IMG/VR virus record: IMGVR_UViG_3300016486_001479
Direction: 5' to 3' (one strand)
Length of the DNA: 36,099 nucleotides
From: an uncultured virus (IMG/VR IMGVR_UViG_3300016486_001479)
Lineage: Duplodnaviria > Heunggongvirae > Uroviricota > Caudoviricetes
In this document: positions 4,762 through 24,091 of the stretch, piece by piece
Layout of the letters: every line of letters begins with the position of its first letter
Numbering within the stretch: the first letter of the stretch is position 1
Position numbers and translations under genes: made by a program
Notes under the pieces: generated by a model
Told to the model about the DNA's origin: nothing
The model's database searches: none
The model's input: only the letters and a program-made list of their open reading frames with translations

Positions 4762-5077
4762 AAAAATAGATTTAGAAACCCTAAGGAATTCAGTTTTTGT
4801 CGTGTCTATAAATATTTTGGCATATAATACATTGCTTGATAAAGGTGGAGATAATGTAGAAAATCTTATACTAAATTCTCAAAAAACTCTTTCGGAAGGG
4901 CTAGGAATTGACAGCAATGAATATCTTCCAAGTATTCGTCTCAGCTTTTTTGAAGAGGACCGAAAAAAAACTCAAATAAGTTTTGGGTTTTATAAAAAAG
5001 TTGACGGGCTTAGGAGTGTGGCGACTCATTTTATATTCAACTCAGATTATATTAAGACGTATCTTAATTTGGAATGA
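4748..5077 (+). CDS. Hypothetical protein (109 aa)
   Basis: Overlaps the previous stop and converges on the 5064 gene. Confidence 0.6.
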   Translation: MKWHRKIDLETLRNSVFVVSINILAYNTLLDKGGDNVENLILNSQKTLSEGLGIDSNEYLPSIRLSFFEEDRKKTQISFGFYKKVDGLRSVATHFIFNSDYIKTYLNLE

Positions 5078-5423
5078 TGTCTGGCGGTATTTCGATGTTG
5101 ATGTATCCTTGCTGAGGAATGGATAATCTATTTCCACCGTTGTAATAAAGCTGAAATTCTCCTCTGTATTTACCAGCTTCGTTTGTATCCACAGCCGCCC
5201 AATTGTATTGGATTGTTCCGCCTGATATAGATTGTAGCGAGCCAGCGGCTCCAGCTACTTTGTAATTCCCATGTCTATCCACCATTGAAAATGTAACAGC
5301 GGTAGCCCCAGTCATGTTGAATGGTATCCTAGTCGTGAGATTGGAGTAATCAAACACACAAATTCGCAACACTGGCAGAGTATCGTTTTGCTTGATGATG
5401 AAATCTCTTTGACTTAAAGGCAT
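5064..5423 (-). CDS. BppU-like (baseplate upper protein N-terminal) beta-sandwich virion protein
   Basis: F-x-IKQNDT-x-P, GTIQYNW...DT..AG.Y.GEF..YY..G.RLSIP pattern typical of BppU-family domains. Confidence 0.7.
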   Translation of the reverse strand: MPLSQRDFIIKQNDTLPVLRICVFDYSNLTTRIPFNMTGATAVTFSMVDRHGNYKVAGAAGSLQSISGGTIQYNWAAVDTNEAGKYRGEFQLYYNGGNRLSIPQQGYINIEIPPDIIPN

Positions 5424-5824
5424 TATGACGTTGTGAATTGGTTACTAACTACTGTAAAATCTAGTGGTTTGTTGTTAAGCATTTCTACTTCTATTTCTCG
5501 TCCCACTGTCGGAGACATCTTAAACTTGAATCGGGTATACTGTAACTTTACTGGGGAATCAGCAGTGTACTTAACTCTCCAATAAATCTCGTAATTATCA
5601 TCTGTGTTATAGAGAATCTCGTCGAGGTCTGCGAAATAGAATCCTACTTCTTGATTTGTTATTGTTGCTCCTGATTCCACAAGGGAATCACCAGTCGATG
5701 CGTTGTATACATCAGCAGTAAGAGATGCTGGGTTTATAACTGTATATGACTCGATGTTTGTACCCCCACTGTTTGAAAACGTGAGTACTCTGAATCGTCG
5801 GTATATCTTTATAACTCCAGCCAT
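5423..5824 (-). CDS. Putative virion protein, beta-rich
   Basis: 1-nt TAATG overlap with the BppU-like gene; downstream of the tube gene; S/T/G-rich with alternating hydrophobic strands. Confidence 0.65.
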   Translation of the reverse strand: MAGVIKIYRRFRVLTFSNSGGTNIESYTVINPASLTADVYNASTGDSLVESGATITNQEVGFYFADLDEILYNTDDNYEIYWRVKYTADSPVKLQYTRFKFKMSPTVGREIEVEMLNNKPLDFTVVSNQFTTS

Positions 5825-5831
5825 AATATAT

Positions 5832-5865
5832 CACACAAAAACCCTACTGTGAGGGTTTTTGTGTG
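5832..5865 (-). terminator. Hairpin/terminator after the tail tube gene
   Basis: Perfect 14-bp inverted repeat CACACAAAAACCCT-actgtg-AGGGTTTTTGTGTG. Confidence 0.7.
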
Positions 5866-5881
5866 TTTTGTTGTGAATTTC

Positions 5882-6212
5882 TTAATTACTGAGAATACAC
5901 CTGTCTGGTTGGAGGGTCAGGGTAGGCATAATCAAATCATCAGAACTATAATCGTAATCTCCAAAGCTTGCGTCTACTATTTGGCATCCGATAAGGGTCC
6001 ATTTTTGAATTTCAACTCCAGGTCCGTCTACCCCTTTCAGTACAAGGTTCTTTTTGTATCCAACTNNNNNNNNNNNNNNNNNNNNGTGAAGGCGCTTTCG
6101 TAGTTTGAACCATATACGAATCGATAGCAAGCTCCGTTGGGAACTCTAGCACAAATCGATTTTTTAATTTTGGTTCCTGCTCGATAGGAACAGGTCGAAA
6201 CATATCTGCCAT
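5882..6212 (-). CDS. Tail tube protein (T4 gp19-like), interrupted by a 20-N gap
   Basis: N part EPKLKNRFVLEFP...VQT..APS and C part YKKNLVL...GPGVEIQKWTLIG...ASFGDYDYS...TLTLQPDRCIL. The two track ORFs (6012-6212, 5882-6130) are halves of one gene. Confidence 0.88.
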
Positions 6213-6237
6213 TATTGTAGCTTTTATTGTTATTTCC

Positions 6238-6246
6238 TATAAATAG
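6238..6246 (-). promoter_or_regulatory. Putative late promoter CTATTTATA for the tail tube gene
   Basis: Recurrent TATTTAT motif 25 nt upstream of the tube ATG. Confidence 0.55.
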
Positions 6247-6408
6247 CTGGCAGAAAAAAGTTTTGTAGCGGCTTGAGATATTAGTTTACCTATTTATTAA
6301 AAAGAGTACTTAAGAGTGTGTTTATAATACATTTTTAGATTAATCTAAATAGGTATTTACCATTATCATTTTTAAGCTTATATAAGCAAGGTTTTAATAG
6401 TTACACAA

Positions 6409-7332
6409 ATGGAACGTAAAATAAAAAGAGCTCTTTGTCTTTCTGGTGGAGGTTCAAAAGGAGCTTGGGCAGGAGGTGTGATTCAATATCTTACTGAGGA
6501 CTTAAAGCTCGACTACGACCTTTACGTCGGAACATCCACTGGAAGCTTGTTAGCTCCGCTTACTTCTATTCGTGAAATAAGCACTTTAAAAGAAGGTTAC
6601 ACCAGCGTAAGCGCTGATGACATATTCTCTTATAATCCATTTAGAAAAGACGGAAGTCCCAGTTATCTTAAAATGGCTTATAGAATAGCTACTTTAAAAA
6701 CAACTTTAGGCGAGAGCGAGGGTTTATTAGAACTTATTAAAAAGTTTTTCAAAGAAAAACACTATGACAAACTCACTAGTGAGGGAAAGGAAGTAATTGC
6801 TGCAGTCGCAAATATTACTGATGAAAAAATTGAATACATGTCATCAAAAGATTGGGGATATGAAATGTTTTGCAAGTGGTTGTGGGCATCCGCCAATACC
6901 CCTCCTTTTATGACTCTTTTTGAACATCAAGGGAAGGAATATGTTGATGGTGCAATTTTGCAACACATCCCTATACAAGCTGCTATTGATGCGGGAGCCA
7001 CTGAAATAGATGTTATTGTATTACGTCCTGAAAAATTTGGTGCAACAGCTAAAAACAAGACAAAAAATGTCATTCATCTCTCAAATAAACTAATTCGAAT
7101 GATGCAACGTAAAATATCACAAACGAATGTTGAAATGGCTCAATTAGAAGCTAATAAGAGAGATGTTAAAATAAACATTATATACACGCCTTATCGACTA
7201 ACTGAAAATTCGCTCGTTTTTGACAAAGAACAAATGTTAAAATGGTGGGAAGAAGGTTATGAATTCGCAAAGGAGGGGAATATGAGACAGTATAAACTTT
7301 CTAAACGGAATGTAATACGTGAGATAGAATAA
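6409..7332 (+). CDS. Patatin-like phospholipase
   Basis: LSGGGSKG oxyanion loop, GTSTG nucleophile elbow, SANTPPF and YVDGA catalytic Asp. Confidence 0.93.
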   Translation: MERKIKRALCLSGGGSKGAWAGGVIQYLTEDLKLDYDLYVGTSTGSLLAPLTSIREISTLKEGYTSVSADDIFSYNPFRKDGSPSYLKMAYRIATLKTTLGESEGLLELIKKFFKEKHYDKLTSEGKEVIAAVANITDEKIEYMSSKDWGYEMFCKWLWASANTPPFMTLFEHQGKEYVDGAILQHIPIQAAIDAGATEIDVIVLRPEKFGATAKNKTKNVIHLSNKLIRMMQRKISQTNVEMAQLEANKRDVKINIIYTPYRLTENSLVFDKEQMLKWWEEGYEFAKEGNMRQYKLSKRNVIREIE

Positions 7333-7337
7333 CTCGC

Positions 7338-7346
7338 CTATTTATA
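7338..7346 (+). promoter_or_regulatory. Putative late promoter CTATTTATA
   Basis: 15 nt upstream of ATG 7362. Confidence 0.55.
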
Positions 7347-7361
7347 AAAAAAGCTCTTAAA

Positions 7362-7670
7362 ATGGCATATAGAACAGGAGACACTATCTATCAAAACATT
7401 GTTTCAACCGATTCCAGTAATAATGTGGAGTCTGGGGCAACTTTCGTTAACAAGCTTTATCGAAATGGCTCTTTATATGCTGGCGCCACTCTTAATTTTG
7501 CCATATCTGATGCTCCAAGAGGAGTTTATACAGCAAGTTTTTCAGCTTCAACCATTGGAGAATATCAAATATATTTTAATAACATCACAACAAACACAAT
7601 TTACATGTCTGGTATATTCAGCTTTAAATCTTCTGAAAATATATCGACAAGCATCTATATAGGTTCCTAA
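7362..7670 (+). CDS. Putative Ig-like virion protein (102 aa)
   Basis: Beta-strand pattern with GVYTASF...GEYQI; shares VESGAT with the 5423-5824 protein. Confidence 0.65.
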   Translation: MAYRTGDTIYQNIVSTDSSNNVESGATFVNKLYRNGSLYAGATLNFAISDAPRGVYTASFSASTIGEYQIYFNNITTNTIYMSGIFSFKSSENISTSIYIGS

Positions 7671-7730
7671 TAGCTGAAAGTAAGGCAAAAATGACTAATT
7701 CTAAGCTATTTAGTGTTGATACAACCCTTT

Positions 7731-9488
7731 ATGGAACAAACTAAGATATTAGACAAGGAAGCTGAATTAATGGAGTGTTCGATGGACCCTATTTACTTTA
7801 TTAACAGTTTTTGTTATGCCTATGATGTACTAAAAGACCAGCAAGCCAACATTAAGTGTTTTGATTATCAAGAGAGAGTTCTGGATTCATACATGGACCA
7901 CAAATGGAATGTGATTTTAAAGTCACGTCAAACTGGTTTATCAGTAATTACCGCATGTTATGTTGCCTGGAGAATGATATTTGGTCTGGATGAGACAATC
8001 GTAATTATCGCCAACAACCAAGACGGCGCAGTTAGATTTCTAAAACACGTCAAGAATGTTTTTATCAATCTTCCTGATTTTATTTATAGTAAAAACCGCG
8101 ATGAAGTTTCTATGGCTACGATGAAAATCGAGCACGCCAATGGGAATATTGCAATCGCTAAGGCAGCTGGTAAAAACGCAGGTCGTGGAGACGCTCCTAC
8201 TCTCTTAATATTAGATGAGTGGGCGTTTGTTAAAGACGACGATGATATCTGGACAGCCGCAGCCCCTTCTTTATCGCAAACAGAAGGAGACTGTATTGTT
8301 ATTTCAACACCAAACGGAACAGGTAATCTATATCACAAGTTCTGGGTCGACGCCGCACGCGGAGATGGTGCCTTCAACCCAATTAAGGTTCACTGGACCG
8401 AAAACCCAAAATCAGCTATTGATTTAGAGTATAGAGAAGACTCAAAAGGTATTTTAAAACCTTGGAGCCCTTGGTATGAAAAGCGATGTAAAGAAGTTCA
8501 GTATGATGGAGTTAAAATAGCACAGGAGCTTGACTTATCATTTGAAGGTTCCAAGTTGTTAGCGTTGGACCCAGATTTAATTGCCAGACAACGACAGCGA
8601 ATTGAGACTGAAAACATCAGGCCCGTCGTGTATTTTGATGTGACAGCAGAAAGTCATAATCTAGTTGGGACTGTCCAGCCTTGTCATATTTTCGAAGCAC
8701 CAAAACTACAGGCTAAATATATTGTGGCTTGCGACGTTGCTTATAGAGGAGATGATTATTCAACTATTCAAGTTTTAGATGTAGACACTCTTAATCAAGT
8801 AGCGGAATACCAGGGTAAATGTGACCCAGATGTGTTCGCTCGTTACATTGAGAAAATTGCAATGTACTACAATACGGCGTTTGTGGTTGTCGAGGCCAAC
8901 AATCACGGCCTCGTAACATGTTTTGAACTGAGAAATCAACTTAAATATCCAAGACTTTATGAATCAAAATCTATCAAAGAAATCCATGTTCGATGGATTG
9001 ATTATAAAGTAAATCCAGGCGATGGGATTCCAGGGTTTCAGACGACAGCACAATCTAGACCAGGATTAGTAAACGCTATGCGTGAAGCATTTAGAGAAAC
9101 CACAGCCACTGTGAACTCAATTCGGTTAATTGGCGAGATGGAAACGTTTGTTAGAAATCTCAAAAAGAACGGAAAAGAGGAAGCTGAGAAAGGATATCAC
9201 GATGACTTAGTTATGGCTTATGGTATTGCCCTTTATATTAGACAGACAGAGTATTATAATGTGGTTAATGCTAAGAATATGTACAAATCTATGCTTGAAG
9301 CCATGACTTTCAACGCTAGTTCTTCCGAAGGGGCAGAAGAAACTCCAGACGAGAAAACACAAAGGTTGCGGGATAAAAAAGATTTTGATGAAAATTTTAT
9401 CCCTCCAGGAGCAGGAGGATTATGGTTAGGAAGCGACGATGAAGCTGATGAAGACGACCCAAACGACCTTTCATGGCTGGTTGGGTGA
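7731..9488 (+). CDS. terL: Terminase large subunit (T4 gp17-like)
   Basis: DPIYFI, Q motif (FDYQ), Walker A KSRQTGLS, Walker B LLILDE, ISTPNG coupling motif, and nuclease motifs DVA...DYS, VEANN and GYHDDLVMA. ATG at 7731 is preferred to GTG at 7713. Confidence 0.97.
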   Translation: MEQTKILDKEAELMECSMDPIYFINSFCYAYDVLKDQQANIKCFDYQERVLDSYMDHKWNVILKSRQTGLSVITACYVAWRMIFGLDETIVIIANNQDGAVRFLKHVKNVFINLPDFIYSKNRDEVSMATMKIEHANGNIAIAKAAGKNAGRGDAPTLLILDEWAFVKDDDDIWTAAAPSLSQTEGDCIVISTPNGTGNLYHKFWVDAARGDGAFNPIKVHWTENPKSAIDLEYREDSKGILKPWSPWYEKRCKEVQYDGVKIAQELDLSFEGSKLLALDPDLIARQRQRIETENIRPVVYFDVTAESHNLVGTVQPCHIFEAPKLQAKYIVACDVAYRGDDYSTIQVLDVDTLNQVAEYQGKCDPDVFARYIEKIAMYYNTAFVVVEANNHGLVTCFELRNQLKYPRLYESKSIKEIHVRWIDYKVNPGDGIPGFQTTAQSRPGLVNAMREAFRETTATVNSIRLIGEMETFVRNLKKNGKEEAEKGYHDDLVMAYGIALYIRQTEYYNVVNAKNMYKSMLEAMTFNASSSEGAEETPDEKTQRLRDKKDFDENFIPPGAGGLWLGSDDEADEDDPNDLSWLVG

Positions 9489-9517
9489 TGCAAAGAGGCA
9501 TGAAATAAAAAATAAAA

Positions 9518-12500
9518 ATGGCACAAGAAAGCAATAATAGTATATTTCAAAGAGTCTATGACGCTGTTAACAATAACAAGCGACGCACTCCTCCTATGGA
9601 CGCACAAGGGCAACCGCCTGGAATATCCACTCCCTCGCAAGGTCTTTTTGGTTCATTAGAGGATTTTCAACAGCAGTACCTTGATTGGCAAGTAAATAAA
9701 ATCAGTCATGACCTATACACCAGAACTATTTATTATGACACAGACCGTGTCAATTCTTATCATGATTATCGTGCAATGGACCAGTCTCCAGAGGTGTCTG
9801 CCGCATTAGATATAATTCGAGACGAATGTCTCACAAGAAACGAGCGTGGAAACATTTTAGAGGTTTATAGCTCCAATGATAGAATCAAATCTAAGTTAGA
9901 TGATTTATTCCATAACAGAATGAATATCGATTACAATTTGAGTTTATGGATTAGAGACCTTATTAAGTATGGAGATTATTTCGTTCACTTACATGTCCAT
10001 AAAGACGAAGGTATTTATGACTTCATGACTCTTCCTCAAGAAGAAATTCACCGTGAAGAAGGATTCGATGGAACAGCAAGTTCTGTACGTTTCCGCTGGG
10101 AAACAACGCAAGATTACTTTGAATCGTGGCAGGTTGCCCATTTCAGGCTTATTGAGGATACTAGAAAACTTCCTTACGGACGGTGCTTGAAGCACGACAC
10201 TTATATAGAGACAAGTACAGGGTATAAGTTTATAAAAGATATAGAGAAAGGAGATTTAGTTTTTTCATTTAACTCTGACACACAAAAAAAAGAAGTCACA
10301 AAAGTCTTAGATACAATTTGTTCTGGTGAAAAAGAAATTATAAAGATTAGAACAAAGAATAATGAAATAGAAACCTCTGAGGAGCACAGTTTTATGGTGT
10401 ACGAGGATGGTGGGTTCGTATACAAACAAGTTGACGATTTAAGATTAGGAAATCTGCTTGTTATAGATTCTGGAGAAAACCCTTCAGGGGTAGATATTTT
10501 TTTAAATAAAGAACTAAAAGAAGAGAGAAACTTCAACGGATATAAAAACAACATTGATTTAATCCCTGATGTTGTTGATGTTGATTTTGCAAGGCTATGG
10601 GGTTTTTTACTAGGAGATGGATGGGTTTTTAACGATTCTGTTTTTTTTGCACGAGGTATTGACGAATCTTTAAATAAAAAATACGCTTCACTTTTGAAGA
10701 AGTTTTCAGGAAAAGACACTATAAACCTTAAAAACGCAAATTTAGAGGGTAGTTTAGAATTTTCTCAAACAGTATGTAACTCAAAGTTGCTTTCTTATAT
10801 TCTCGAAAATAACGGGTTTAAAGGAAATGTTTATATTAAAAGATTGCCTAGTTGGATTTTTGAGGCGTCATTAGAAATAAGAGAAGCTTTAATAGAAGGC
10901 ATTATAGACGCTGATGGTTCTGTAAATATTGACGAGTGGAACTGTAAAAGATACACAATAGAATTAGCAAATGAAATTTTAGTAAAAGACTTAAAAACGC
11001 TATTACAATCAATAGGTAGAAAGACTGGCAAAATCTGTTCAAGAGATAGAAGTTCTGTTGTTTTTTGGGGAAAAGAATACAAAAGAAAGAAAAGTTTCTA
11101 CTTCTACTTTTATGACTCTAAAATTAAACAAGCAGCAAAACATGAGTTATCAAATAGGATTAATAGTGGTTTCATCTTATCTCCAATCATCTCTATTGAG
11201 AACTCTGAAAAAGCAGAGCAGGTTTATGATATCCACGTAGAGCATGAACACCATAATTTCTATGCGAATGGGATAGTCGTTCACAACTCTATCTTAGACC
11301 CTGCTAGAAAACTTTGGAAGCAACTACAGCTCGCTGAGGACTCAATGTTGGTCTATAGAATCACAAGAGCTCCAGAGCGTAGAATATTCTACATTGAGGT
11401 AGGCAACTTGGAGGATGCTGATGTTAAGCAATACATGCAGCGTATCCAAAAGCAAGTTAAAAAACAGCCTATTGTGAATCAGAACGACGGCAATATGAGT
11501 TATCGTTATGACCCAATGAATATCTCGGAAGATTATTTTATTCCAGTTCGTGGTGACAAGAGCACAAAAATTGACACACTTCCTGGAGCTTGTTTGGCTC
11601 TAGATACTAAAATCAACCTTCTTGATGGTCGAAGCCTTGAGCTTCAGAAATCATTAAAGAGCGTGATGAAGGAAAACAGCTTTGGACTTACAGTATAAAT
11701 CCAGAAACTGGAGTAATAGTTCCAGGAAAAATTACATGGGCTGGAGTTACTCGTAAAGACGCTAAAGTAATGAAATTGACTTTTGACAACGGAGAGTCTG
11801 TTATTGTTACACCTGACCACAAGTTCCCTACTCGTTTTAAAGGTATACAAGAAGCACAAAATCTTGAAGAAGGAGATTCTATGTGGAGTTTTGAGAAGAG
11901 GTTTCAGAAGATTTTCAAAAACAAACCTAAAGCTAAAACATATGAACAAGTGTGGGACCACCAAAGCAAATCCTGGGAGTATACACATCGTATGGTTCAT
12001 AATTACATGTATGAGCGCAATTTGCACAAGGAACATGTTTATCAAAAAAATGTGGAAAACAAAAACGTGATTCATCATTATGATTTTGACCGATACAATA
12101 ATTCTCCAGAGAATTTAAAATTAATGAATTTCCATGACCATGTTATGCTTCATCAATCTATGTATGCTTCTTATAAAAAAGAGCGTAAAGAAGGTAGAAA
12201 TAAGTATTGGGATAATATCTCTGAGAAAGAATTAGAATCTAAAAGAGTAGTAGCACGAATCAACTTAGAAAAAGCAACAGAACGAATTCAAGAGCTACTG
12301 CAAGATGAAGATTTTAAAGCTGATTTTGAAAAGAAACGAATAGCTGGATATCGTAAAGCAAGAAAAACATCTTCTTCTCGTCTAAAATCATCTANNNNNN
12401 NNNNNNNNNNNNNNNNNNNNNNNNNNNNNNNNNNNNNNNNNNNNNNNNNNNNNNNNNNNNNNNNNNNNNNNNNNNNNNNNNNNNNNNNNNNNNNNNNNNN

Positions 12501-14319
12501 NNNNNNNNNNNNNNNNNNNNNNNNNNNNNNNNNNNNNNNNNNNNNNNNNNNNNNNNNNNNNNNNNNNNNNNNNNNNNNNNNNNNNNNNNNNNNNNNNNNN
12601 NNNNNNNNNNNNNNNNNNNNNNNNNNNNNNNNNNNNNNNNNNNNNNNNNNNNNNNNNNNNNNNNNNNNNNNNNNNNNNNNNNNNNNNNNNNNNNNNNNNN
12701 NNNNNNNNNNNNNNNNNNNNNNNNNNNNNNNNNNNNNNNNNNNNNNNNNNNNNNNNNNNNNNNNNNNNNNNNNNNNNNNNNNNNNNNNNNNNNNNNNNNN
12801 NNNNNNNNNNNNNNNNNNNNNNNNNNNNNNNNNNNNNNNNNNNNNNNNNNNNNNNNNNNNNNNNNNNNNNNNNNNNNNNNNNNNNNNNNNNNNNNNNNNN
12901 NNNNNNNNNNNNNNNNNNNNNNNNNNNNNNNNNNNNNNNNNNNNNNNNNNNNNNNNNNNNNNNNNNNNNNNNNNNNNNNNNNNNNNNNNNNNNNNNNNNN
13001 NNNNNNNNNNNNNNNNNNNNNNNNNNNNNNNNNNNNNNNNNNNNNNNNNNNNNNNNNNNNNNNNNNNNNNNNNNNNNNNNNNNNNNNNNNNNNNNNNNNN
13101 NNNNNNNNNNNNNNNNNNNNNNNNNNNNNNNNNNNNNNNNNNNNNNNNNNNNNNNNNNNNNNNNNNNNNNNNNNNNNNNNNNNNNNNNNNNNNNNNNNNN
13201 NNNNNNNNNNNNNNNNNNNNNNNNNNNNNNNNNNNNNNNNNNNNNNNNNNNNNNNNNNNNNNNNNNNNNNNNNNNNNNNNNNNNNNNNNNNNNNNNNNNN
13301 NNNNNNNNNNNNNNNNNNNNNNNNNNNNNNNNNNNNNNNNNNNNNNNNNNNNNNNNNNNNNNNNNNNNNNTCACTTAGCGTTTCTTGGGCATGAAGACGA
13401 GATTAATGATTTTGATTTAAAACTCACAAACCCTTCTACTCAACAAGAGCTGTTGAAGCTAGAGACGATGAAATCTCGACTTGAAGTATTTACATTGTTT
13501 GTGTCACAAGATATCTACTCACCTGCTTCTTACACTTGGGGTATGAAATACATTCTTGGATTTTCTGAAAAGGATATCAAGAAAATGCTTCGTCAGAAAA
13601 AAGTTGAAAGGAAACTGTTTACGGAGATTGAATTTGCTCCGCAGACATACAAAAAGATTGGATTGTTCAAAGATTTGGATGATAAATTTGAAATCCCAGG
13701 AGCAGCAGAAGCACTCCAAAACGCTGAGAACGAAGATTTAATGGGAGATGACGGCGGCGGCGGCGGCGGAGGCTTTGGCGGAGGAGGAGACTCGCTGGCT
13801 GGAGACCCATCTGGAGACCTTGATATGGGAGGTGGAGATGAAGTTGGAGGCGATGCAGGAGGAGCGCCTCCAGTAAGTGATAGCGAGCCTATATCAGAAA
13901 CTAAAAGAGAACGCATTTGGGAAGGTCACAACAAGCGTGTTGATAGTGCAATTGATGACTTGCTTAAAGAGCTTGAGGAAACCGATGAAGAAGTATTTAC
14001 GGAAGAAAGCGAGGAAGAAAAGAAAGACAGAGAAAAAAACGTTTTGTTTAAATCAAACGAAGAATTTATCAGTCAGACTGATAAAATGATTAGTGAGATA
14101 AAGGGAAATTTAAAAGAATCTGAGAAAAATATTGAAAATTACATTATACCAAAAGGAGTAATAAAAGAAAGAGTTCAAGGAAACCCTCTTGTCTCTACCA
14201 GTAATGATTTAGCAAGAAAAGCTAGAGATATAATGGATGAGATTGACCAAATAATATCTGAAACTGGGCAAAATTCTGATATGGAAATAATTGAAGAAGA
14301 CTATGACGAGGAAGAGTAA
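9518..14319 (+). CDS. Portal protein (T4 gp20-like) with two inteins; one frameshift and one gap
   Basis: PEVSAALDIIRDE, KYGDYF, AHFRL..., PYGR|SILDPARK, EDSMLVYRITRAPERRIFYIEVG, EDYFIPVRG and IDTLPGA. After the gap, HLAFLG...FDLKLTNPS is followed by an acidic tail. Confidence 0.93.
10184..11287 (+). mobile_element. Portal intein 1 (368 aa) with LAGLIDADG endonuclease
   Basis: Starts CLKHDTYI, block B TSEEH, LAGLIDADG helices WGFLLGDG and EGIIDADG, ends NFYANGIVVHN with +1 Ser. Removal restores PYGR-SIL. Confidence 0.96.
11591..12394 (+). mobile_element. Portal intein 2 with HNH endonuclease (3' end in gap)
   Basis: Starts CLALDTKINLLDG. After a -1 shift at about 11644 it reads SEIIKE...WTYSINPETG...VTPDHKF (block B), then HNH motif HRMV...VIHH.DFD..NN..ENL...H...H. 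Confidence 0.9.
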
Positions 14320-14793: not shown

Positions 14794-16983
14794 ATGTATA
14801 TAGTCTTCGATACAGAGACTACTGGCAGGCCAAAACGGTTTAACGCACCTTGGACAGATGCAGATAACTGGCCTCGACTAGTACAGTTAGCCTGGGTTGA
14901 ATATGCACAAGACGGCAGCGAAATATCCAGGCACGACCTTATAATTAAACCTGAAGGATACAACATTCCTCACGAAGTCGTTCAAATACACGGCATATCA
15001 AACGAAAAGGCGCACGCAGAAGGAATTTCTATGCTTGATGCCTTAAATCAGTTTAAAATTGCTCTAGAGCGTAACTATTACCTCATAGCACATAATATCA
15101 ATTTTGACCTTGGAATTATGGGGTGTGAATTTCATCGAGCATCGATGAGTCACAATCTAGCTTCAATATTTCCCGTTGACACGATGAAGCTTACAATTGA
15201 CTTTTGTAAATTAAGGGGTCGTCGGGGTTATAAATTTCCAAAACTTATTGAGCTCCATAATAAGCTTTTTGGGAAAGATTTTTTAGGTGCTCACAACGCA
15301 TTTTTCGATGTGCAAGCAACCGCTAAATGTTTTTTTGAACTTCAACGGCTTGGCATTTTCGGATTTAAAGAACTTCCTTCCGATTCCTCTAATGGGTTTT
15401 CTTCTGAGAGTGTTGCCCACGTATCGGTATCCCCAGAAGAGGAAGCTAAGCCGTTAGTTCATTTCTCTTGTCACACTCACTATAGCTTGCTTCGTGGCTC
15501 AGGTAGTATTGATAATTATCTTAAGCGTGCTAAAGAACTAGGGCACACATCTCTCGCTGTTATTGATGTCGAAACCATGTCAGGCAGTCTAGAGTTGTCA
15601 CAGAAAGCTGAAAAATACGGAATCAAGCCAATATTTGGAATTGAAATCTATCTCAACGATACTGTTGGCTCCGAAGAGTCAGAAAAAGGTGGATACCCAA
15701 TAAAAATCATTGTTAAAAACCAAGTGGGTTTTGTAAACCTTAATAAGCTGATATTTAAATCTCATTCAGAAGGTTTTGATGGGATGTATTCTCGTATTCA
15801 CACTGATTGGTTAATTGAGAACAAAGAAGGTTTGATTGTTACCACTGGAAACTACCAAGGATATCTCGCAAGTTTGTTTTTTAAAGGACAAAAGACGGCA
15901 GCTTCTAAATATTGGGAACGATTACAAAAAGCATTTGGCCCAGATTATATCGCAGAAATTAAGTTTTCAGAGATTGGTGAGCAAAAGCGATTTAACAACT
16001 TTGTTTTAAAAATGGCATCCGCCACGAAGGCAATGGTGATTTTAGATAATGATGTTCATTATGTTAAGCAAAAAGAAGCGTCTTTGCAAGACACTGTTTC
16101 CGCTATAAAACAACAAATAGGGATGGATAAGTGTCGTTTAGAGGAACGAAGAAATCTGTATTATTTGTCGAGAAAAGACTACTATGTTCTGAATTCAAAA
16201 TTTGGATACAATTACCCGCACAACATTCTACAGATATTCATGGATAACACTTTGAAGCTGGCTGAGCGTTGCAATTTTGAATTTGAAGTAGGGGTTGAAA
16301 AATACCCTCGTTACGAACCAACGAAAGACATTATAGATTGGGCAGGAGCAGAGGACACGGAAACCATTATCACAAAGATGGCTTTTGCGAAACTCAAGCA
16401 AAAGCTCGGACGTAAGTTTACCAAAGGAAAATTACAACAAACACAAGAGGTTGTAGATGAGTACACAAATAGACTCCATTACGAGTTAAAAGTAATTAAG
16501 GACAAGAAGATGCTTGACTACTTCCTTGTAAACTGGGAAATTATTCGAGATTATAAGAAAAGAGGTTTTGAAATTGGAAGTGGAAGAGGCTCTGCAGCTG
16601 GTTCTTTATTAGCATGGTGTCTTGACATCACTAAGATTGACCCTATTCAATTCGGGCTGTATTTTGAGCGTTTTTTGAATCCAGCACGTAATTGCGTTAC
16701 TGAAGATGGGCTGGTGTTGATGAAAGATGGCTCACTGAAACCTATCGGAGATATTGTTCCTGGGGACCCAGTTGAAACAGAATCAGGCAACGGCGTTTTG
16801 GTTCAAGTGCATAAGCGAGATATCACACCAGCTGATGAGGTGTTTGAGATTGAAACTGAAGATTCCATCATTGTAAAATTGACGGGGAATCACATTGTAC
16901 CTGTGATGCGCAAAGGAGAGCGTGTTGATATTCGCGTGGATGAGTTATTAGAGACAGATAAAATGTTAATACGAAAATTATGA
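14794..16983 (+). CDS. dnaE: DNA polymerase III alpha fragment 1: DEDDh exonuclease + PHP + start of palm + intein N-half
   Basis: FDTETTG, AHNINFD and HNAFFD (DnaQ); HTHYSLL and NDVHY (PHP); GRGSAAGSL...ITKIDP...FERFLNP; then an intein N-half. Confidence 0.95.
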   Translation: MYIVFDTETTGRPKRFNAPWTDADNWPRLVQLAWVEYAQDGSEISRHDLIIKPEGYNIPHEVVQIHGISNEKAHAEGISMLDALNQFKIALERNYYLIAHNINFDLGIMGCEFHRASMSHNLASIFPVDTMKLTIDFCKLRGRRGYKFPKLIELHNKLFGKDFLGAHNAFFDVQATAKCFFELQRLGIFGFKELPSDSSNGFSSESVAHVSVSPEEEAKPLVHFSCHTHYSLLRGSGSIDNYLKRAKELGHTSLAVIDVETMSGSLELSQKAEKYGIKPIFGIEIYLNDTVGSEESEKGGYPIKIIVKNQVGFVNLNKLIFKSHSEGFDGMYSRIHTDWLIENKEGLIVTTGNYQGYLASLFFKGQKTAASKYWERLQKAFGPDYIAEIKFSEIGEQKRFNNFVLKMASATKAMVILDNDVHYVKQKEASLQDTVSAIKQQIGMDKCRLEERRNLYYLSRKDYYVLNSKFGYNYPHNILQIFMDNTLKLAERCNFEFEVGVEKYPRYEPTKDIIDWAGAEDTETIITKMAFAKLKQKLGRKFTKGKLQQTQEVVDEYTNRLHYELKVIKDKKMLDYFLVNWEIIRDYKKRGFEIGSGRGSAAGSLLAWCLDITKIDPIQFGLYFERFLNPARNCVTEDGLVLMKDGSLKPIGDIVPGDPVETESGNGVLVQVHKRDITPADEVFEIETEDSIIVKLTGNHIVPVMRKGERVDIRVDELLETDKMLIRKL
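16693..16980 (+). mobile_element. Intein N-half 1 (96 aa), apparently split
   Basis: CVTEDGLVLM..G..KPI.DI.PGD.V, block B LTGNH, then a stop (TGA) with ATGA overlap to the next ORF. Confidence 0.85.
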
Positions 16984-17221
16984 TAGTACAAGGAAGTAGA
17001 GATATTAATTTTAAAGGTATGTGTCAAGAAGGTTCTAAACTTATAATTCCAGCTTGGCAAAAACCAACAGAATGGGATAAGCAGGTGAGAATATTCTTAG
17101 ACCACATTATAATGTCAATGTCTTCCAATAAAGGCTCTCATGATATTGGAAGAATTAACGCGAGAGATACCCACAAAATACCCTCTAATGAGAAGGGGTG
17201 GTTTGACAATATTGATGAAAG
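16980..17221 (+). CDS. Intervening ORF in the first dnaE break, DUF262 (GmrS/ParB-like)-like N-terminus; runs into gap
   Basis: LIIPAWQKPTEWDKQVRIFLDHII...HDIGRI resembles the DUF262 IP.YQR.Y.W...v..L.d.i...h.lG.i block; it is neither intein-C nor DnaE sequence. Confidence 0.45.
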
Positions 17222-17772
17222 NNNNNNNNNNNNNNNNNNNNNNNNNNNNNNNNNNNNNNNNNNNNNNNNNNNNNNNNNNNNNNNNNNNNNNNNNNNNNNN
17301 NNNNNNNNNNNNNNNNNNNNNNNNNNNNNNNNNNNNNNNNNNNNNNNNNNNNNNNNNNNNNNNNNNNNNNNNNNNNNNNNNNNNNNNNNNNNNNNNNNNN
17401 NNNNNNNNNNNNNNNNNNNNNNNNNNNNNNNNNNNNNNNNNNNNNNNNNNNNNNNNNNNNNNNNNNNNNNNNNNNNNNNNNNNNNNNNNNNNNNNNNNNN
17501 NNNNNNNNNNNNNNNNNNNNNNNNNNNNNNNNNNNNNNNNNNNNNNNNNNNNNNNNNNNNNNNNNNNNNNNNNNNNNNNNNNNNNNNNNNNNNNNNNNNN
17601 NNNNNNNNNNNNNNNNNNNNNNNNNNNNNNNNNNNNNNNNNNNNNNNNNNNNNNNNNNNNNNNNNNNNNNNNNNNNNNNNNNNNNNNNNNNNNNNNNNNN
17701 NNNNNNNNNNNNNNNNNNNNNNNNNNNNNNNNNNNNNNNNNNNNNNNNNNNNNNNNNNNNNNNNNNNNNNNN

Positions 17773-19133
17773 CTAAATGGAATGAAAGAGGATGTTTGAA
17801 GGACGTTGTTCGTGCACACCGTGGGCCAGAAGCAACAGGAACTGAATCGGATGTAGCTCAAATCACTAAAGAGATGCCGAAGTTCGACAAAGTCGAATAC
17901 AACTTGGCTTGGTGGTTAGAAAACCATGCTCAGTCAGATGATTGCAGTCCACTCGTACAAAGATGGCTTACTGATTCATCCAACAAAGTAATTATAGAAC
18001 AAACACTGGCTCTTCAGGGTCAAGTGAGAGGTTTTGGTAAACACGCCGCTGGAGTTGTTATTACTCCTGGGCCTTCTTGGGACTACCTCCCAACAAATAT
18101 GATTGTCTCTAATAAATCAATTGTATCAGCATATCAAGAGGGGGACCGCTCTGGAAAAGACTTGAGTTATCTTGGGATATTGAAGCTTGACCGTTTGAAA
18201 GTGTCAACAATTAATATCATCATGGATTGTATCAAGATGGTTAAGGATGGTGAAAAGATTGATTTGTTCGATACAATAATGAATATTGATGAGCAGTTTG
18301 ATGACCAAAACCTTTACAAGGAGTTAATGCTTGGTCAGAACCACGGTATATTCCAATTTGAATCGCCAGGCATGAACGCTTTGATTCGAGGACTCAACGT
18401 TGAGAACTTTGAAGAAATGGCTGCTTGTAATGCTCTTTATCGACCAGGCCCAATGGGAATTGGAGCCCACCGTCAATACGTTGATAACAAGAGGTTCCCA
18501 GGACAGATTGAATTTCCATCTGATTTGATAAAGCCAATATTAGAAAAAACTAACGGTGTACTGGTGTTTCAGGAGCAAATTCAATTTATCGCAAAAGAGA
18601 TAGCGGGAATGGATTTAGGAGAGGGTGATAACTTGCGTCGTGCACTTGATAAAGCTGCGAAGCTTATAAAAAAAACAAACCAAGGAGAAGAACTCACTCA
18701 GGACGAAAAGGAAAGTAAGAACTATAAAGCTTACGAAGAGTATTGGAGTAAGTTTGTATCTGGAGCAGAGGAAAATGGTGTTCCGAAAGAAGAGGTTGAT
18801 AAAATCCTTTTATACCTTTCTGATTATCTAGGGTATTCGTTTAACAAATGTTTATCTGAAAACTGTGAAGTCACAGAAAAGGAAAAGGGAAAAATATCTC
18901 TTTTAAAAACTAGGCCAGGAGATATGATTTTAGGTTATAATCCAGACACGAAAAAAAATGAATGGGTTCCAGTGAAAGCTCGTCATAACAACGGTAAAAA
19001 GAAAGTTTATCGAATTAAGACAAGTAGTGGGAAAATTTTAGAATGCACTTTGGACCATAAAATAATGACTGAACAAGGTATGTTACCTCTGAAAGATATT
19101 ATTGAACAAAAGCTTTCTGTAAAAATAAACTAG
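17773..19133 (+). CDS. dnaE: DNA polymerase III alpha fragment 2 (start in gap) + intein N-half
   Basis: LKDVVR, GKHAAGVVI, GILKLD, GIFQFES.GM, ALYRPGPM, T.GVLVFQEQ, D.LRRA and GYSFNK, then an intein N-half. Confidence 0.95.
18849..19130 (+). mobile_element. Split intein N-half 2 (94 aa)
   Basis: CLSENCEV...GD.ILGY, block B CTLDH, followed by two in-frame stops (TAG TTT TAA). Confidence 0.95.
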
Positions 19134-19166
19134 TTTTAACAAATCTCAGTCTATATACTATATATT

Positions 19167-20156
19167 ATGAAAGTAAAAATCGATTTCAAAAAGGATATAG
19201 TGAATGGCGAAGATATTGATATGAAAAAATGGAGGGCAAAGTTGTCATTAGTTTTAATTAGACAAAACAACAACTACTACAATTCTGAGATATCAAATTA
19301 TTATCACAAAAGTGTTTATGGGAAGAGTTTGGTAGATTTGCTTCCAGAATCCATTACAACTCCTTTGTGTCCGATTACAGGAGATAAGCCTAGTTACAAA
19401 CTTCAAGGCTCTATTGTTTTCGGTAAATTTTCGAATAATTGTACTACAACAGAAACTGCTAAGTACGTGGCGGAAAATAATAAAGAATATAAACTTCACG
19501 TCGAAAGAATGAAGGAAGAACGCAAAGGAAAAGGAAACCCTATGTACGGTATAAAAGCTTGGAACAAAGGAAAAACTAAAGATAATAATGAAGTCATGAA
19601 AAAGCTTTCTGAGCGCAGAAAAGGCGTTGAATTCAGCAATGAAACACTTGAGCGCATGTCAGAGAGTGCTAAAAAAAGAGAAATACATGGTCATACTGGA
19701 TTTAAACATTCAGAAGAAACTAAACAGCGCCTTAGAGATATAACGATAGCTAGATACAAAAGTGGTGTCTATTCTCATGGTCAATCAAAACCTCATCTTG
19801 AGGTAAAGAGAATGCTAAGTGAACGATTTGGAAAAGATACTTATTCTGAATCAAATCACGCTAAAGAATTCAAAGGTACATGGGAAGAAGAGTTTTCTTG
19901 TTATGGTTATTCTTTTGACTTTAGAATAGGAAGCATTTTAATAGAAGTACAGGGAGATTTTTTTCATAGTAATCAAAATACAAGACATAGCGGGTGTACT
20001 CATGATGTTCAAATAAAGAACAAGAAAAGAGATATAAAAAAAAGGCATGCAGTTGAAAGTGACGGGAGTTTTCAGCTTATAGAATTGTGGGAGAATGATA
20101 TAATTAATAACGAGTCAATTATAAAAAACAAAATAAAATGTTTGAATCTATTATAG
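19167..20156 (+). CDS. Free-standing homing endonuclease: NUMOD3-type repeats + Vsr/DUF559-like (EDxHD) nuclease
   Basis: GKGNPMYG, AWNKG and GFKHSEETKQRL DNA-binding motifs. C-terminal FDF...IEVQGDFFH...RD..K...LWENDI. Lies between split intein halves. Confidence 0.88.
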   Translation: MKVKIDFKKDIVNGEDIDMKKWRAKLSLVLIRQNNNYYNSEISNYYHKSVYGKSLVDLLPESITTPLCPITGDKPSYKLQGSIVFGKFSNNCTTTETAKYVAENNKEYKLHVERMKEERKGKGNPMYGIKAWNKGKTKDNNEVMKKLSERRKGVEFSNETLERMSESAKKREIHGHTGFKHSEETKQRLRDITIARYKSGVYSHGQSKPHLEVKRMLSERFGKDTYSESNHAKEFKGTWEEEFSCYGYSFDFRIGSILIEVQGDFFHSNQNTRHSGCTHDVQIKNKKRDIKKRHAVESDGSFQLIELWENDIINNESIIKNKIKCLNLL

Positions 20157-20248
20157 AAGTTGAAGAAATAGGAGTGGTAGATACTTACGATTTAGAAATC
20201 GATAATGAACATCACAACTTCTATGCAAATGATATCTGTGTTTCAAAT
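20138..20248 (+). mobile_element. Split intein C-half 2 (37 aa)
   Basis: MFESIIEVEEIGVVDTYDLEIDNEHHNFYANDICVSN with +1 Ser; joining restores FNK-SHS. Confidence 0.96.
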
Positions 20249-21229
20249 AGTCACTCGGTTTCATACGCATACATCGCTATGCAAACTTTATACTTAAAGC
20301 ATTACTACCCAGTATACTTTTATACAGCGCTATTGAACGAGCAAAAGTCTTCAAACGCTGGAAAGGAGAAAGAAAAACAATGGCTGACTCAGACAATCAC
20401 CGCTGCAATATCTAGAGGAATCACTATAAAACCTCCGACTAGATTCTCAATATGGAGATGGTCGATGACTGGCCCCAACGAAATCACAATGGGTTTCTCT
20501 AGCATGACTGGGATGGGAGATATTGCTTATAAAGAGTTGAAAGATAATTTAGCAATAAAAGGGAAGAAATTTAGCGAAATATCTATGGCTGCTTTTTTTG
20601 ATATACCCTTCACTAAATTCAACAAGACTTCTTTTCGTTCTTGTTTACAAGCGGGAATGTTTGATGACTGGAGCACTTCTAGAGAATATTTAATGTTTCT
20701 AAGAGATAAAAACAGGAAGAAAAAACCTAAAGACGCTTCGCAGTTTGCAATGTTCGACATGGATGATATCGAGTACACTCATAGAATAGACCATTTAAAA
20801 TACGCAGCAACTTCCGATATTGAAAAGCAAGATGAATTTATGGGAGTATGTGGTTTTGATATGGAAGAAATTAATCGAGTTTCAATTATTCACACCCGAA
20901 TGGGGGAAATGAGTGACAAGTCGAAAGAAGCTATTCTTCCACTACCACATTATGCTGAAGAAGGTTTTTACTGGTTTATTATCAATGATATCTTATTTAA
21001 GAAAACTAAAAAAGGAAAAGACTTTATCTCTATACATGGAAGCGATGGTATTGACACTGTAAAGTTCAATATATTTTCTCCAATTAGTGAAAAACTTCTT
21101 CCTCAGCTACAGAAACAAGCTGTATACGTAGGCAAATTCAAACGAAACGAAAAAGGATTTTTAAACTTTAACGGAAGAGTTAAATTAACAACAGTAATGC
21201 ATGCATATGAAGAAACATTATTGGTTTGA
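20138..21229 (+). CDS. dnaE: Intein C-half + DNA polymerase III alpha fragment 3
   Basis: After a 37-aa IntC the extein begins SHSVSYAYIAMQTLYLKHYYP..FY.ALL; HhH-like GFSSMTGMG, AGMFD, QFAMF and a C-terminal OB-fold-like region. Confidence 0.95.
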   Translation: MFESIIEVEEIGVVDTYDLEIDNEHHNFYANDICVSNSHSVSYAYIAMQTLYLKHYYPVYFYTALLNEQKSSNAGKEKEKQWLTQTITAAISRGITIKPPTRFSIWRWSMTGPNEITMGFSSMTGMGDIAYKELKDNLAIKGKKFSEISMAAFFDIPFTKFNKTSFRSCLQAGMFDDWSTSREYLMFLRDKNRKKKPKDASQFAMFDMDDIEYTHRIDHLKYAATSDIEKQDEFMGVCGFDMEEINRVSIIHTRMGEMSDKSKEAILPLPHYAEEGFYWFIINDILFKKTKKGKDFISIHGSDGIDTVKFNIFSPISEKLLPQLQKQAVYVGKFKRNEKGFLNFNGRVKLTTVMHAYEETLLV

Positions 21230-22415: not shown

Positions 22416-22847
22416 TTAAGTGATAGAACCCCAGTCAAAAAGCGCTAATACTGATATAATAAAGGTTATTATTATACCGACAGCAACTCCAATCCCTACT
22501 ATGTAGCTTTTGTAGTCTTCAAGTTTAGAAATTCTTTCAATGAGGCTGTCTGTTGAATTTTTAACTTCAACTACATTTTCGTTAATTTCTTTAATCAGAG
22601 TCTTTATTCTTTCATCTACACGGGCTTGAAATTTGTAAGAGGATTTTTCTATCTCATTTTTAATTGACGTTACTCCTGATTTTAGCTCAACAATTTCTTT
22701 CTCTAGTCCTTTAAGTTTTGTTATCTCTAAATTACTATCTTGAATGCCTTCACGAAGTTTTTCAGAGCTTTCATTTAAACGTTCTAATTCACGAATGATG
22801 TGCTTTGACCATTCGTTCCATCCATTTTTTTCTTGGTTATCCGACAT
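22416..22847 (-). CDS. Coiled-coil protein with a single C-terminal transmembrane helix
   Basis: About 100 aa of heptad pattern followed by YIVGIGVAVGIIITFIISVLALF. ATG at 22847 (alternative GTG at 22853). Confidence 0.8.
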   Translation of the reverse strand: MSDNQEKNGWNEWSKHIIRELERLNESSEKLREGIQDSNLEITKLKGLEKEIVELKSGVTSIKNEIEKSSYKFQARVDERIKTLIKEINENVVEVKNSTDSLIERISKLEDYKSYIVGIGVAVGIIITFIISVLALFDWGSIT

Positions 22848-24063
22848 CTTCACTGTTATGTTTATCGTTATTTAACTCTTGGATTACCTTGCTAGACAAA
22901 ACAATATAGCTCACTTCTCCCTCTTCATTCAATATTGGACTTACTATGCTGCTTGCTAGCTTATAACCTTTTGTTTTATGCTTCCCTCTGTACTTTACAA
23001 TAAGTGTTTTTTTTGTATTCAAAACACTTAACATTTTTTTCATTGTTTTTTCTTCATCTTCTGGATGAATCAATTCTGATAAACTTTGTTTTACATGCTC
23101 TTCAGGAGCATATCCAGTATATTCTAAACAAGAGGGAGATATGTAAACCAAAGACGGAGGGCCATCGTTTATTTTATACACTTTCACAAGTTCACGAGTG
23201 TTATGAAGAATTTTCTCATATATTTCCCTGTTTATAAAAGCTTCTTTTTCAGATTTTATAACTTCTGTAATCACCTTAGTGCTAGTCCTTATTTCAGTAA
23301 TTTCTCCATTTTCAAGTATCGGCTTCGAACAAGACTCTACCCACACATAATACCCTTTTTTATGTCGAAGTCGAAACCTTGCAATTTGAAAATCTTTATT
23401 TTTCATCAAAGGTTTGTGTGATTCTTTTTTTATTCTTTCAACATCTTCAGGCAACACAAAATCATAAGCATTTTTTTCAACCATGTCACTTTGACTGTAT
23501 CCAAAAAGCTTTTCGTAAGAAGGAGAAACGTATATATAATTTCCTTTGGTGTCATGCAAGCAAATAGCTTCGTGACTACTTTCAGTTAAAACTTTGTAAA
23601 TTTTATCTTGTTTACTAATTTTTATAGCTTGTTGAATTTCTGTTGTTATGTTCGCACAAACGCTGTAATTAATCCCATTATTATCAGGAATTGAAGAATT
23701 CCATTTTAACCAAACGCTATGACCATCCTTATGGAGATATTCATTCACAAATCCTTCAATAACACTCTCAATACCTTTTTTTAGCTTAGTCAAAACAGCT
23801 TTAGTTTTATCAACACTGTTCGGAGAAATAAAAGACAATATAGGAGATGATAGCAATTCCTCTTCAGAGTATCCTAACCACTTGCAAAAAACAGAATTAA
23901 CTTTAATAAACATTTCATCTTCAACATTTGCTATACACATTCCAGCTGAAGAGTTTTCAAAAAAACCTCTAAACATTTTTTCTGAATCAAGAATATCTTT
24001 GTCGCGTCGATTAAGTTTTTCCGTGAGTGATTTAAGAAGTTCTATGTTAATATTGCTCTCCAT
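22837..24063 (-). CDS. Stand-alone triple PAS-domain protein
   Basis: Three PAS/PAC repeats: VN..FC.WLGYSEEEL...HKDG..VW; YVSPS...FGY....V.PED...RHKKG..VW; YISPS...TGY..EE...IHPED. Ends about 12 aa after the third repeat. Confidence 0.92.
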   Translation of the reverse strand: MESNINIELLKSLTEKLNRRDKDILDSEKMFRGFFENSSAGMCIANVEDEMFIKVNSVFCKWLGYSEEELLSSPILSFISPNSVDKTKAVLTKLKKGIESVIEGFVNEYLHKDGHSVWLKWNSSIPDNNGINYSVCANITTEIQQAIKISKQDKIYKVLTESSHEAICLHDTKGNYIYVSPSYEKLFGYSQSDMVEKNAYDFVLPEDVERIKKESHKPLMKNKDFQIARFRLRHKKGYYVWVESCSKPILENGEITEIRTSTKVITEVIKSEKEAFINREIYEKILHNTRELVKVYKINDGPPSLVYISPSCLEYTGYAPEEHVKQSLSELIHPEDEEKTMKKMLSVLNTKKTLIVKYRGKHKTKGYKLASSIVSPILNEEGEVSYIVLSSKVIQELNNDKHNSEDVG

Positions 24064-24091
24064 AAACGGCAAACTATTTTTTAATTTAAAG

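Follow-up and report, generated by a model that had tools for sequence, protein, structure and literature searches.

Positions 14,794–21,229 of the DNA analysed here, a 36,099-nucleotide stretch of an uncultured virus (IMG/VR record IMGVR_UViG_3300016486_001479) to which we refer as the window, hold a gene for the DNA polymerase DnaE in three separate pieces. Each piece is an open reading frame (ORF) of its own on the same strand. The broken ends carry the halves of two different split inteins, with an N-terminal half (IntN) closing pieces 1 and 2 and a C-terminal half (IntC) opening pieces 2 and 3 (Table 1). An earlier note on this DNA had proposed this arrangement, and the ends that it described are present: piece 1 terminates as FERFLNPARN/CVTEDG...IRKL-TGA-TAG (a slash marks the predicted junction), piece 2 as GYSFNK/CLSENC...VKIN-TAG-TTT-TAA, and piece 3 opens with its IntC and the junction VSN/SHS. 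The note also placed a non-DnaE ORF in each break. This holds for break 2, where there is one (ORF-C), and requires amendment for break 1, which contains two, of 110 and 354 amino acids (aa; ORF-A and ORF-B).

Table 1. Features of the split dnaE locus in the window and in the related contig L003.
Feature	Window	L003	Strand	Description
dnaE piece 1	14794..16983	2158-4347	+	729 aa; Pfam RNase_T, PHP, DNA_pol3_alpha, Hint
IntN1 (site b)	16693..16980		+	96 aa; Cys1; block-B TGNH; net charge -8
ORF-A	16980..17221 (visible part)	4344-4676	+	110-aa orphan; ATGA overlap with piece 1 stop
ORF-B	within gap	4673-5737	+	predicted 354-aa Vsr-like endonuclease
dnaE piece 2	17773..19133 (visible part)	5734-7356	+	540 aa in full
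IntC1 (site b)	inside gap 17222-17772	5734-5886	+	51 aa; ends IIHN; net charge +2
IntN2 (site c)	18849..19130		+	94 aa; Cys1; block-B TLDH; net charge +7; TIGR01445 above cut-off
ORF-C	19167..20156	7390-8379	+	329-aa free-standing ORF; predicted NUMOD3/Vsr-like endonuclease
dnaE piece 3	20138..21229	8361-9452	+	363 aa; TIGR01443 above cut-off; PRK05673 37-339
IntC2 (site c)	20138-20248		+	37 aa; ends VSN; net charge -10

Break 1 includes a run of 551 N in the window, a scaffold estimate rather than a true length. A scan with the middle extein identified four IMG/VR contigs (L001–L004) with 100% protein identity, which match both flanks of the gap at 99.9–100% identity. The true gap length is 1410 bp in L001, L003 and L004 (L003 4586–5995) and 399 bp in L002. 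A fifth record, G001, is the nearest virus record (141 kb, an estimated 64% complete, with 97% of the window's sampled words in common); it is 99.99% identical to L003 and has the long form of the gap. The gene layout is identical in all five records that span the gap region. The long form supplies the end of ORF-A, ORF-B, and the start of piece 2 with IntC1 and an SPPDLDID motif, giving the order piece 1, ORF-A, ORF-B, piece 2, ORF-C, piece 3 (L003 2158–9452). As the earlier note predicted, the ORF that begins at 16980 stops within the gap and is followed by a new ATG and an IntC. This IntC is longer than the 30–45 aa expected, at 51 aa, and ends IIHN/SPPDLDIDF; the first split does lie at the catalytic motif, two residues before P-D-x-D, although the motif reads PDLD and not PDID. 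An extra A at 16973–16977, which would fuse the frames, is absent from all four aligned contigs, whose bases are identical around the piece 1 stop, and no indel is listed there in any of four sequencing runs, three of which bridge the site. One of these, X3, possibly the source of the window, contains the whole 7.6 kb in one piece.

The short form, L002, is a 1011-bp deletion (L002 5355–5737 versus L003 4610–5620) that removes the end of ORF-A and all of ORF-B except its last 38 codons. The deletion joint was found in two of four runs, both of which also have contigs inside the deleted segment. Long and deletion alleles both segregate in the phage's own population, and their coexistence is probably the reason for the scaffold gap.

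The extein of piece 1 (633 aa, 14794–16692) comprises a DEDD exonuclease, the PHP domain and the first part of the palm; that of piece 2 (395 aa) carries the catalytic aspartate motifs, the thumb, and the fingers up to GYSFNK; and piece 3 contributes 326 aa beginning SHS. Compared with E. coli DnaE, residues 221–632 of piece 1 correspond to 6–396, piece 2 to 399–758, and piece 3 to the sequence from 759 onward. The PHP domain, the palm with its three catalytic Asp motifs, the fingers, the helix-hairpin-helix (HhH) element and the C-terminal region are collinear with bacterial DnaE. The PRK05673 profile spans all three pieces, and PRK09532 and PRK07373 cover pieces 2 and 3. Both the PDLD and the KLD motif lie in piece 2; judging from the structure of DnaE, presumably no single piece holds the whole active site. 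Site b, where the first intein resides, is two residues before PDLD, and site c is between FNK and SH in the fingers. The spacing from FERF to PDxD is 16 residues in all 65 one-ORF alleles that have the motif and likewise in the predicted spliced product. GYSFNx is followed by SH in 61 of 64 one-ORF relatives, and the other three begin an intein there. Predicted intein removal thus restores the spacing of the empty site, with junctions that match uninterrupted relatives exactly.

Residues of class 1 protein splicing are present in all four halves: C..TGNH in IntN1, YDL..HN/S in IntC1 (which has an insert between blocks F and G), C..TLDH in IntN2 and YDL..SN/S in IntC2. They are conserved among homologues. 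C1, T64 and H67 of IntN1 are invariant in 14/14 aligned homologues, the block-B TxxH motif is found in 14/14 IntN-b and 44/45 IntN-c sequences, HN terminates 63/63 IntC-b sequences, and 57 of 67 piece 3 homologues open with the same kind of IntC, 56 of these with a terminal SN; in the IntN-b, IntN-c and IntC-b sets, Cys1 and the terminal Asn are fixed by the pattern used for selection. The two inteins are only distantly alike, with 21 of 94 residues identical between IntN1 and IntN2 and mean identities between families b and c of 23% (N halves) and 28% (C halves), versus 51–74% within families. In a four-chain structure prediction of IntN1, IntN2 and IntC2 with IntC1 as partner, the score was 0.78, against 0.00 for the best of three controls. 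IntC1 formed confident contacts with IntN1 only; at least 95% of contacts were shared between runs, and the predicted local distance difference test (pLDDT) of the partner was at least 77. Of 157 solved complexes, 116 attain the pass mark, as do 2 of 215 mismatched pairs; these figures apply only roughly to this job. The prediction supports pairing of IntC1 with IntN1, although the pass, obtained with IntC1 as partner, may reflect likeness to solved inteins.

The IntC-X-IntN layout serves in the laboratory to cyclise proteins. Since the middle chain has this layout, it must avoid self-reaction: piece 2 would cyclise if its own IntC and IntN reacted, and IntN1 reacting with IntC2 would skip piece 2. 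The net charges of the four halves (Table 1) oppose both cross-reactions. The same polarity is found family-wide. At site b, IntN is negative in 14/14 sequences and the first 20 aa of IntC are positive in 61/63; at site c, IntN is positive in 42/45 and IntC negative in 55/57. We considered whether this charge reversal is a safeguard evolved for the three-piece gene and rejected it as a full explanation, as singly split and cis alleles share the polarity; in cis site-c inteins, the C part is negative in 14/14. A further site, a (RG/SAAG), lies 34 residues before site b and has the polarity of b (IntN negative 4/4, IntC positive 43/44). In one search, 15 of 52 matches were pieces consisting of IntC-a, 34 aa and IntN-b, with two oppositely charged ends on one chain. 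The intein in the phage's NrdA also has the polarity of site b (IntN -15, IntC +2). Thus, charge probably helps to keep pairs b and c apart, but it is not the whole specificity code, because same-charge pairs also coexist. Each intein family brought its polarity along, and pairs of like polarity must be kept apart by other features.

This NrdA intein is a third split intein in the same phage. Its gene lies on the minus strand of L228 (G001:C1:77500-83500) as pieces of 738 aa, ending TAS/C-IntN, and 216 aa, starting IntC-HN/T. The 422-aa ORF between them has a C-terminus that appears Vsr-like by eye, without Pfam support.

The ORFs in the breaks are predicted to include one endonuclease gene per intein. 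ORF-B has 10 aligned homologues at 34–40% identity, with a conserved C-terminal domain of the pattern E...D...E-x-x-G-D-Y-W-H...D; S-x-x-E and the D, E, H and next D are nearly invariant across 11 homologues. By eye and without superposition, E230, D271, E282, H289 and D315 are candidates for the EDxHD residues. The best PDB match of its predicted model (pLDDT 75) is Vsr (1cw0, E 8e-4), with I-Bth0305I at rank 5. ORF-C has a weak Pfam match to NUMOD3 and is 47–51% identical to two homologues. Its low-confidence model (pLDDT 59) matches 1cw0, 1vsr and 3r3p at ranks 1–4, with E values of 6e-3 to 2e-2 (6e-3 for Vsr 1cw0 and 1e-2 for I-Bth0305I 3r3p), and D251, E260, H267 and D289 were assigned by eye. 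Searches of the PDB by sequence with the C-termini of ORF-B and ORF-C gave nothing significant. ORF-A has no Pfam, NCBIfam or PHROG match, no usable Atlas match, and no homologue in the other loci compared. Other passengers occur in break 1 of other phages, such as a 603-aa ORF for a GmrSD-type restriction endonuclease between IntN-b and the Vsr-like gene (L009 3937–5748), and the site-b break seems to tolerate cargo genes.

The 3′ end of each endonuclease gene runs over the start of the following IntC, by a 4-nt ATGA overlap in break 1 and by 19 nt in break 2. The only spacer is the 33 nt between the piece 2 stop and ORF-C; the other joints are overlaps. The T4-type late promoter TATAAATA was not found before either endonuclease gene. 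With a loose pattern and no background control, a TATTTA(T)-type motif was matched in 13 of the 16 distinct upstream regions; in most relatives the endonuclease genes are preceded by hairpins of -8 to -17 kcal/mol. A sigma-70 and terminator scan gave 36 and 7 hits, against 24 ± 5 and 4 ± 2 in shuffled sequences, with nothing interpretable. Separately, TATTTATA occurs at window 7339 and 25680, before ORFs at 7362 and 25710 (baseplate), and within hairpins before the endonuclease genes of L011, L027, L031, L040, L042, L049 and L054; it is a possible phage promoter motif (no background control).

The three-piece layout was sought in relatives, as the earlier note had suggested, and it is present in L031, whose middle extein is 56% identical and whose two endonuclease genes are intact. 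Among 97 loci compared (L005–L101, not independent; L102–L164, at 29–36% identity, were left out), DnaE is encoded by one ORF in 66, two in 26, three in 4 and four in 1. Of the 26 two-ORF loci, two represent a single contig interrupted by an in-frame TAG, and L006, L064 and L094 show only part of a doubly split gene. At least three pieces can be seen in full in three distinct phages: this phage, L031 and L028. The last has a four-piece dnaE (3128–10012) split at sites a, b and c; only 3′ remnants survive of the three endonuclease genes, and small, unrelated ORFs occupy the gaps. In L028 and L094 (219–719), sites a and b are combined in a piece of 164–166 aa consisting of IntC, 34 aa and IntN; the 164-aa precursor of L028 would contribute only 34 residues, next to the active site, to the polymerase. 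Among the best 120 of 2174 piece 2 homologues, found with the middle piece as query, 30 are middle pieces (22 IntC-b...IntN-c and 8 IntC-a...IntN-c), which lie dispersed over the tree. The in-frame TAG noted above lies at 7301–7303 of L084 and L090, the same contig in two collections, in an otherwise whole dnaE, and reflects sequencing error or recoding. The contigs of L031 and L028 (G010 and G009) are rich in inteins: N-terminal intein regions were matched 7 times in 35 kb and 8 times in 95 kb, and single frames of 1973 and 1788 aa have three.

Each endonuclease family is associated with the intein family of its own site. Site b is split in 22 of 97 loci, all with ORF-B or a remnant, and no cis form was seen there; at site c, splits are accompanied by ORF-C or a remnant wherever the gap is visible, and 16 of 61 distinct sequences have a cis intein. 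Where the endonuclease gene is lost or shortened, its 3′ tail still lies just before IntC in 7 of 8 gaps examined. Insert length ranges from 64 bp to ~3 kb among relatives, with the start of IntC retained. Alleles occur in four states (empty, cis, split-with-endonuclease and split-with-remnant), and their distribution is patchy. Two splits are found in 33 of 155 classifiable rows (collapsed at 97% identity); these require 31 changes on a FastTree tree, no different from the median for shuffled labels (31). A tree of the 92-aa IntN-c gave 9 split/cis changes against a shuffled minimum of 11, from a sequence too short for the result to count. Exteins that are almost identical can be in different states: L063 is empty and P0080 split at 100% identity, L064 and L065 differ at 99.7%, and L086 is whole and L028 in four pieces at 96.4%. 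This pattern is consistent with repeated acquisition, through homing, of a cassette that was already split and that later decayed. Related phages would reach the split layout repeatedly because each break travels with its own predicted DNA-cutting gene.

We therefore propose the following mechanism, in which expression, splicing, DNA cleavage, homing and a need for the full-length enzyme are inferred from sequence. The three precursors would be translated separately from one strand. IntN1 at the end of piece 1 would pair with IntC1 at the start of piece 2, and IntN2 at the end of piece 2 with IntC2 at the start of piece 3. Two canonical trans-splicing reactions (acyl shift at Cys1, attack by Ser+1, Asn cyclisation) would then yield a 1354-aa enzyme. 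Each break would be a composite selfish cassette in which IntN and a stop are followed by a free-standing gene for a Vsr-like endonuclease of EDxHD type and then by IntC, with the IntC start codon inside the tail of the endonuclease gene. By cleaving alleles in which its own site is empty, the endonuclease would let the already split intein home as a unit. Cassettes at sites a, b and c would arrive independently, their coincidence giving three- and four-piece genes; two site-specific cassettes homed into one gene would entail two trans-splicing steps. That two such steps build DnaE from three pieces is, in our judgement, very probable. We lean, with considerable reserve, towards a broader reading as well. 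In it, split inteins would be mobile units in their split state rather than remnants of a single past break, each fracturing a gene at its own site on arrival. The polymerase would be built from three or four chains. In each infected cell of this phage, two natural split inteins of DnaE and one of NrdA would work side by side, two of them with the same polarity, without cross-splicing, as a naturally selected orthogonal set with rules beyond charge.

A number of observations weigh against the proposed mechanism. At least three DnaE ORFs are seen in full at only 5 of the 97 loci, three of them from this same phage, and searching with the middle piece biased the protein census towards split forms. 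Co-infecting phages could also produce the patchy states by ordinary recombination. The ORF-C fold match is above E 0.001, His occupies the ORF-C position of the first EDxHD Glu of ORF-B in 3/3 aligned sequences, and the hairpins before ORF-B and ORF-C are weak here (-8.1 and -5.2 kcal/mol). The fall of the IntC1 score to 0.00 on replacement of IntN1 was obtained with IntC2 present to occupy IntN2, and not for the cross pair alone. No second dnaE was found in G001, though with that record 64% complete an intact copy could lie in the remainder. PolB was not found in any of the five records searched (the four near-complete relatives among them), and DnaE is likely, from this gene content, to be the replicative polymerase; a PolA-family ORF of 542–559 aa is nevertheless present in 4/4 near-complete relatives (4/5 records searched), and this enzyme or the host DnaE could cover for a poorly assembled DnaE.

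The intein halves could instead act as docking domains only, so that the polymerase is a multi-chain complex assembled non-covalently or with only one junction spliced. Intein-less fractured NrdA and gp43 do function as two chains (PMC2677866). We consider this improbable for DnaE, as all splicing residues are present and are kept in homologues only 51–74% identical within each half, and an unspliced intein of ~150 residues would sit two residues from the first catalytic Asp. Somewhat less probable still is that dnaE is a decaying casualty of selfish elements and that replication falls to the PolA-family enzyme found in the near-complete relatives or to a host polymerase. The frameshifted or eroded endonuclease genes of L094, L028 and L093 do represent decay inside the breaks; yet this decay does not extend beyond the endonuclease ORFs. 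In this phage, L031 and L028 the dnaE pieces have open frames and intact motifs, and the homologues include complete middle pieces in the numbers given above.

Joining at the level of RNA or translation (group I intron, frameshift, bypassing or read-through) would turn the halves into ordinary cis inteins, of the kind that does exist at site c, and the ATGA overlaps of break 1 are all -1 frame steps. This is very unlikely: break 1 would need three successive -1 shifts over 1.4 kb, overlaps and a 33-nt spacer leave no room for an intron core, Rfam gave no match at E≤0.1 in four loci, genetic codes 4 (TGA=W) and 15 (TAG=Q) open neither break, and the IntC start is kept across the whole range of insert lengths. 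That an assembly artefact (a homopolymer error or mis-scaffold) created one of the breaks is scarcely credible, despite the N gap inside the locus and a real one-base error in the window's portal gene 5 kb upstream, since five records and three bridging runs agree (some may be the window's own source) and the distant L031 shares the arrangement.

Around the dnaE locus lie genes for tail sheath, a T4-like terminase, portal and baseplate, as in a large myophage genome; the virus is a jumbo myophage, and its four near-complete relatives span 291–519 kb. All 24 listed runs containing the window stretch are labelled salt-lake metagenome; they are presumed to be DNA runs, 18 are possible sources of the window DNA, and no RNA run is among them. 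Cultured phages are distant, with best tblastn identities of ~25–32% among the 40 matches listed of 1275 and none close. The 80 loci from bacterial genomes are 30–35% identical, save one 2.8-kb contig at 51%. The apparent break of the portal gene (window 9518–14319) at 11698/11770 is due to an extra G near 11648 that is absent from four related contigs. Three of these and G001 have one 1490-aa frame, which carries two cis inteins (LAGLIDADG-like and HNH-like). A stand-alone short DUF559/Vsr-like ORF runs from ~24090 into a gap at 24353 (L007 13427–13942), and such an ORF lies a few kb downstream of dnaE in many relatives, including those with a whole dnaE. A multi-PAS-domain protein (22837–24072, minus strand) and a patatin-like phospholipase (6409–7332, plus strand) are encoded among structural and replication genes.

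Natural trans-splicing in the papers cited here joins two chains; ordered ligation of three or four into a replicative enzyme, if true, would mean that multi-step trans-splicing is viable in nature. The clade provides dozens of natural alleles of three intein families coexisting in one protein, which could serve to test what determines the specificity of split inteins and could supply orthogonal pairs for assembling proteins from several fragments. With empty, cis, split-with-endonuclease and split-with-remnant alleles and a segregating deletion, the gene-breaking steps of Dassa become directly testable.

In contrast to the DnaE of cyanobacteria, site c lies after FNK and is followed by Ser+1, IntN2 is basic and IntC2 acidic, and a second split is located at the active site. 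The cyanobacterial split site lies before CFNK. The dnaE of Trichodesmium has several inteins with one of them split, and thus one trans-splicing event, the others being contiguous. As is proposed for this phage, cyanobacteria (Ssp/Npu) trans-splice DnaE near the FNKSH motif of the fingers (PMC2677866, PMC4760082), but, according to the first of these, with one split, unlinked genes, no endonuclease and Cys at +1. The MIJ3 split PolB has an endonuclease ORF between its intein halves, with one trans-splicing event and other inteins contiguous (PMC6892783), as opposed to two splits here. Engineered assembly with the orthogonal split inteins gp41-1, gp41-8, NrdJ-1 and IMPDH-1 joins chains in order (PMC11766414). 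Those inteins come from different genes and genomes and were combined in the laboratory, whereas the present set is natural and belongs to one protein in one infected cell. Passages of PMC6892783, PMC4760082, PMC7886860, PMC7824862, PMC11766414 and bioRxiv 2025.01.02.630785 deal with genes split once, with inteins in cis, with genes fragmented by introns, with a split DnaE that lacks inteins or with orthogonal sets made by engineering, and in none of them is a naturally twice-split protein described. No natural twice-split protein was found in a literature search whose coverage mostly excluded subscription journals.

The EDxHD prototype I-Bth0305I is encoded in a group I intron of recA and is reported to cut only the uninterrupted host-gene allele (PMC3239194). 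ORF-B and ORF-C resemble it in their predicted C-terminal Vsr-like fold, in a long N-terminal region with NUMOD-like content, and in lying at the insertion site of a conserved gene; they differ in being predicted nucleases between split-intein halves, and ORF-C lacks the aligned first Glu.

In the fractured genes of Dassa 2009 (PMC2677866), split inteins with IntN of 88–105 aa and IntC of 33–54 aa (here 96/94 and 51/37 aa) accompany free-standing Vsr-like or GIY-YIG endonucleases. By analogy, each break appears to work like such a fractured gene and shares most of its defining traits. Both breaks have the N-part with IntN and stop, a same-strand endonuclease ORF, and IntC with the C-part; the endonuclease 3′ end overlaps the IntC start, alleles that have lost the endonuclease exist, the origin is phage, and DnaE is among the hosts. 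The retention of the endonuclease 3′ tail before IntC is as Dassa's model predicts. For one trait, a hairpin with the T4-type late promoter, the observations are mixed: TATAAATA is missing before the endonuclease genes here and the hairpins are weak, but hairpins form in most relatives and the loose TATTTA(T)-type motif is frequent. Extra passenger ORFs in break 1 set it apart from those genes. The Dassa genes are broken in two, whereas the present gene has two breaks (that of L028 has three) and a middle chain of IntC, extein and IntN; a passage in that report may glimpse a middle piece, not described as such. Single breaks are thus already published (Dassa 2009), and the doubling, its recurrence and the four-piece forms set the present gene apart from them.

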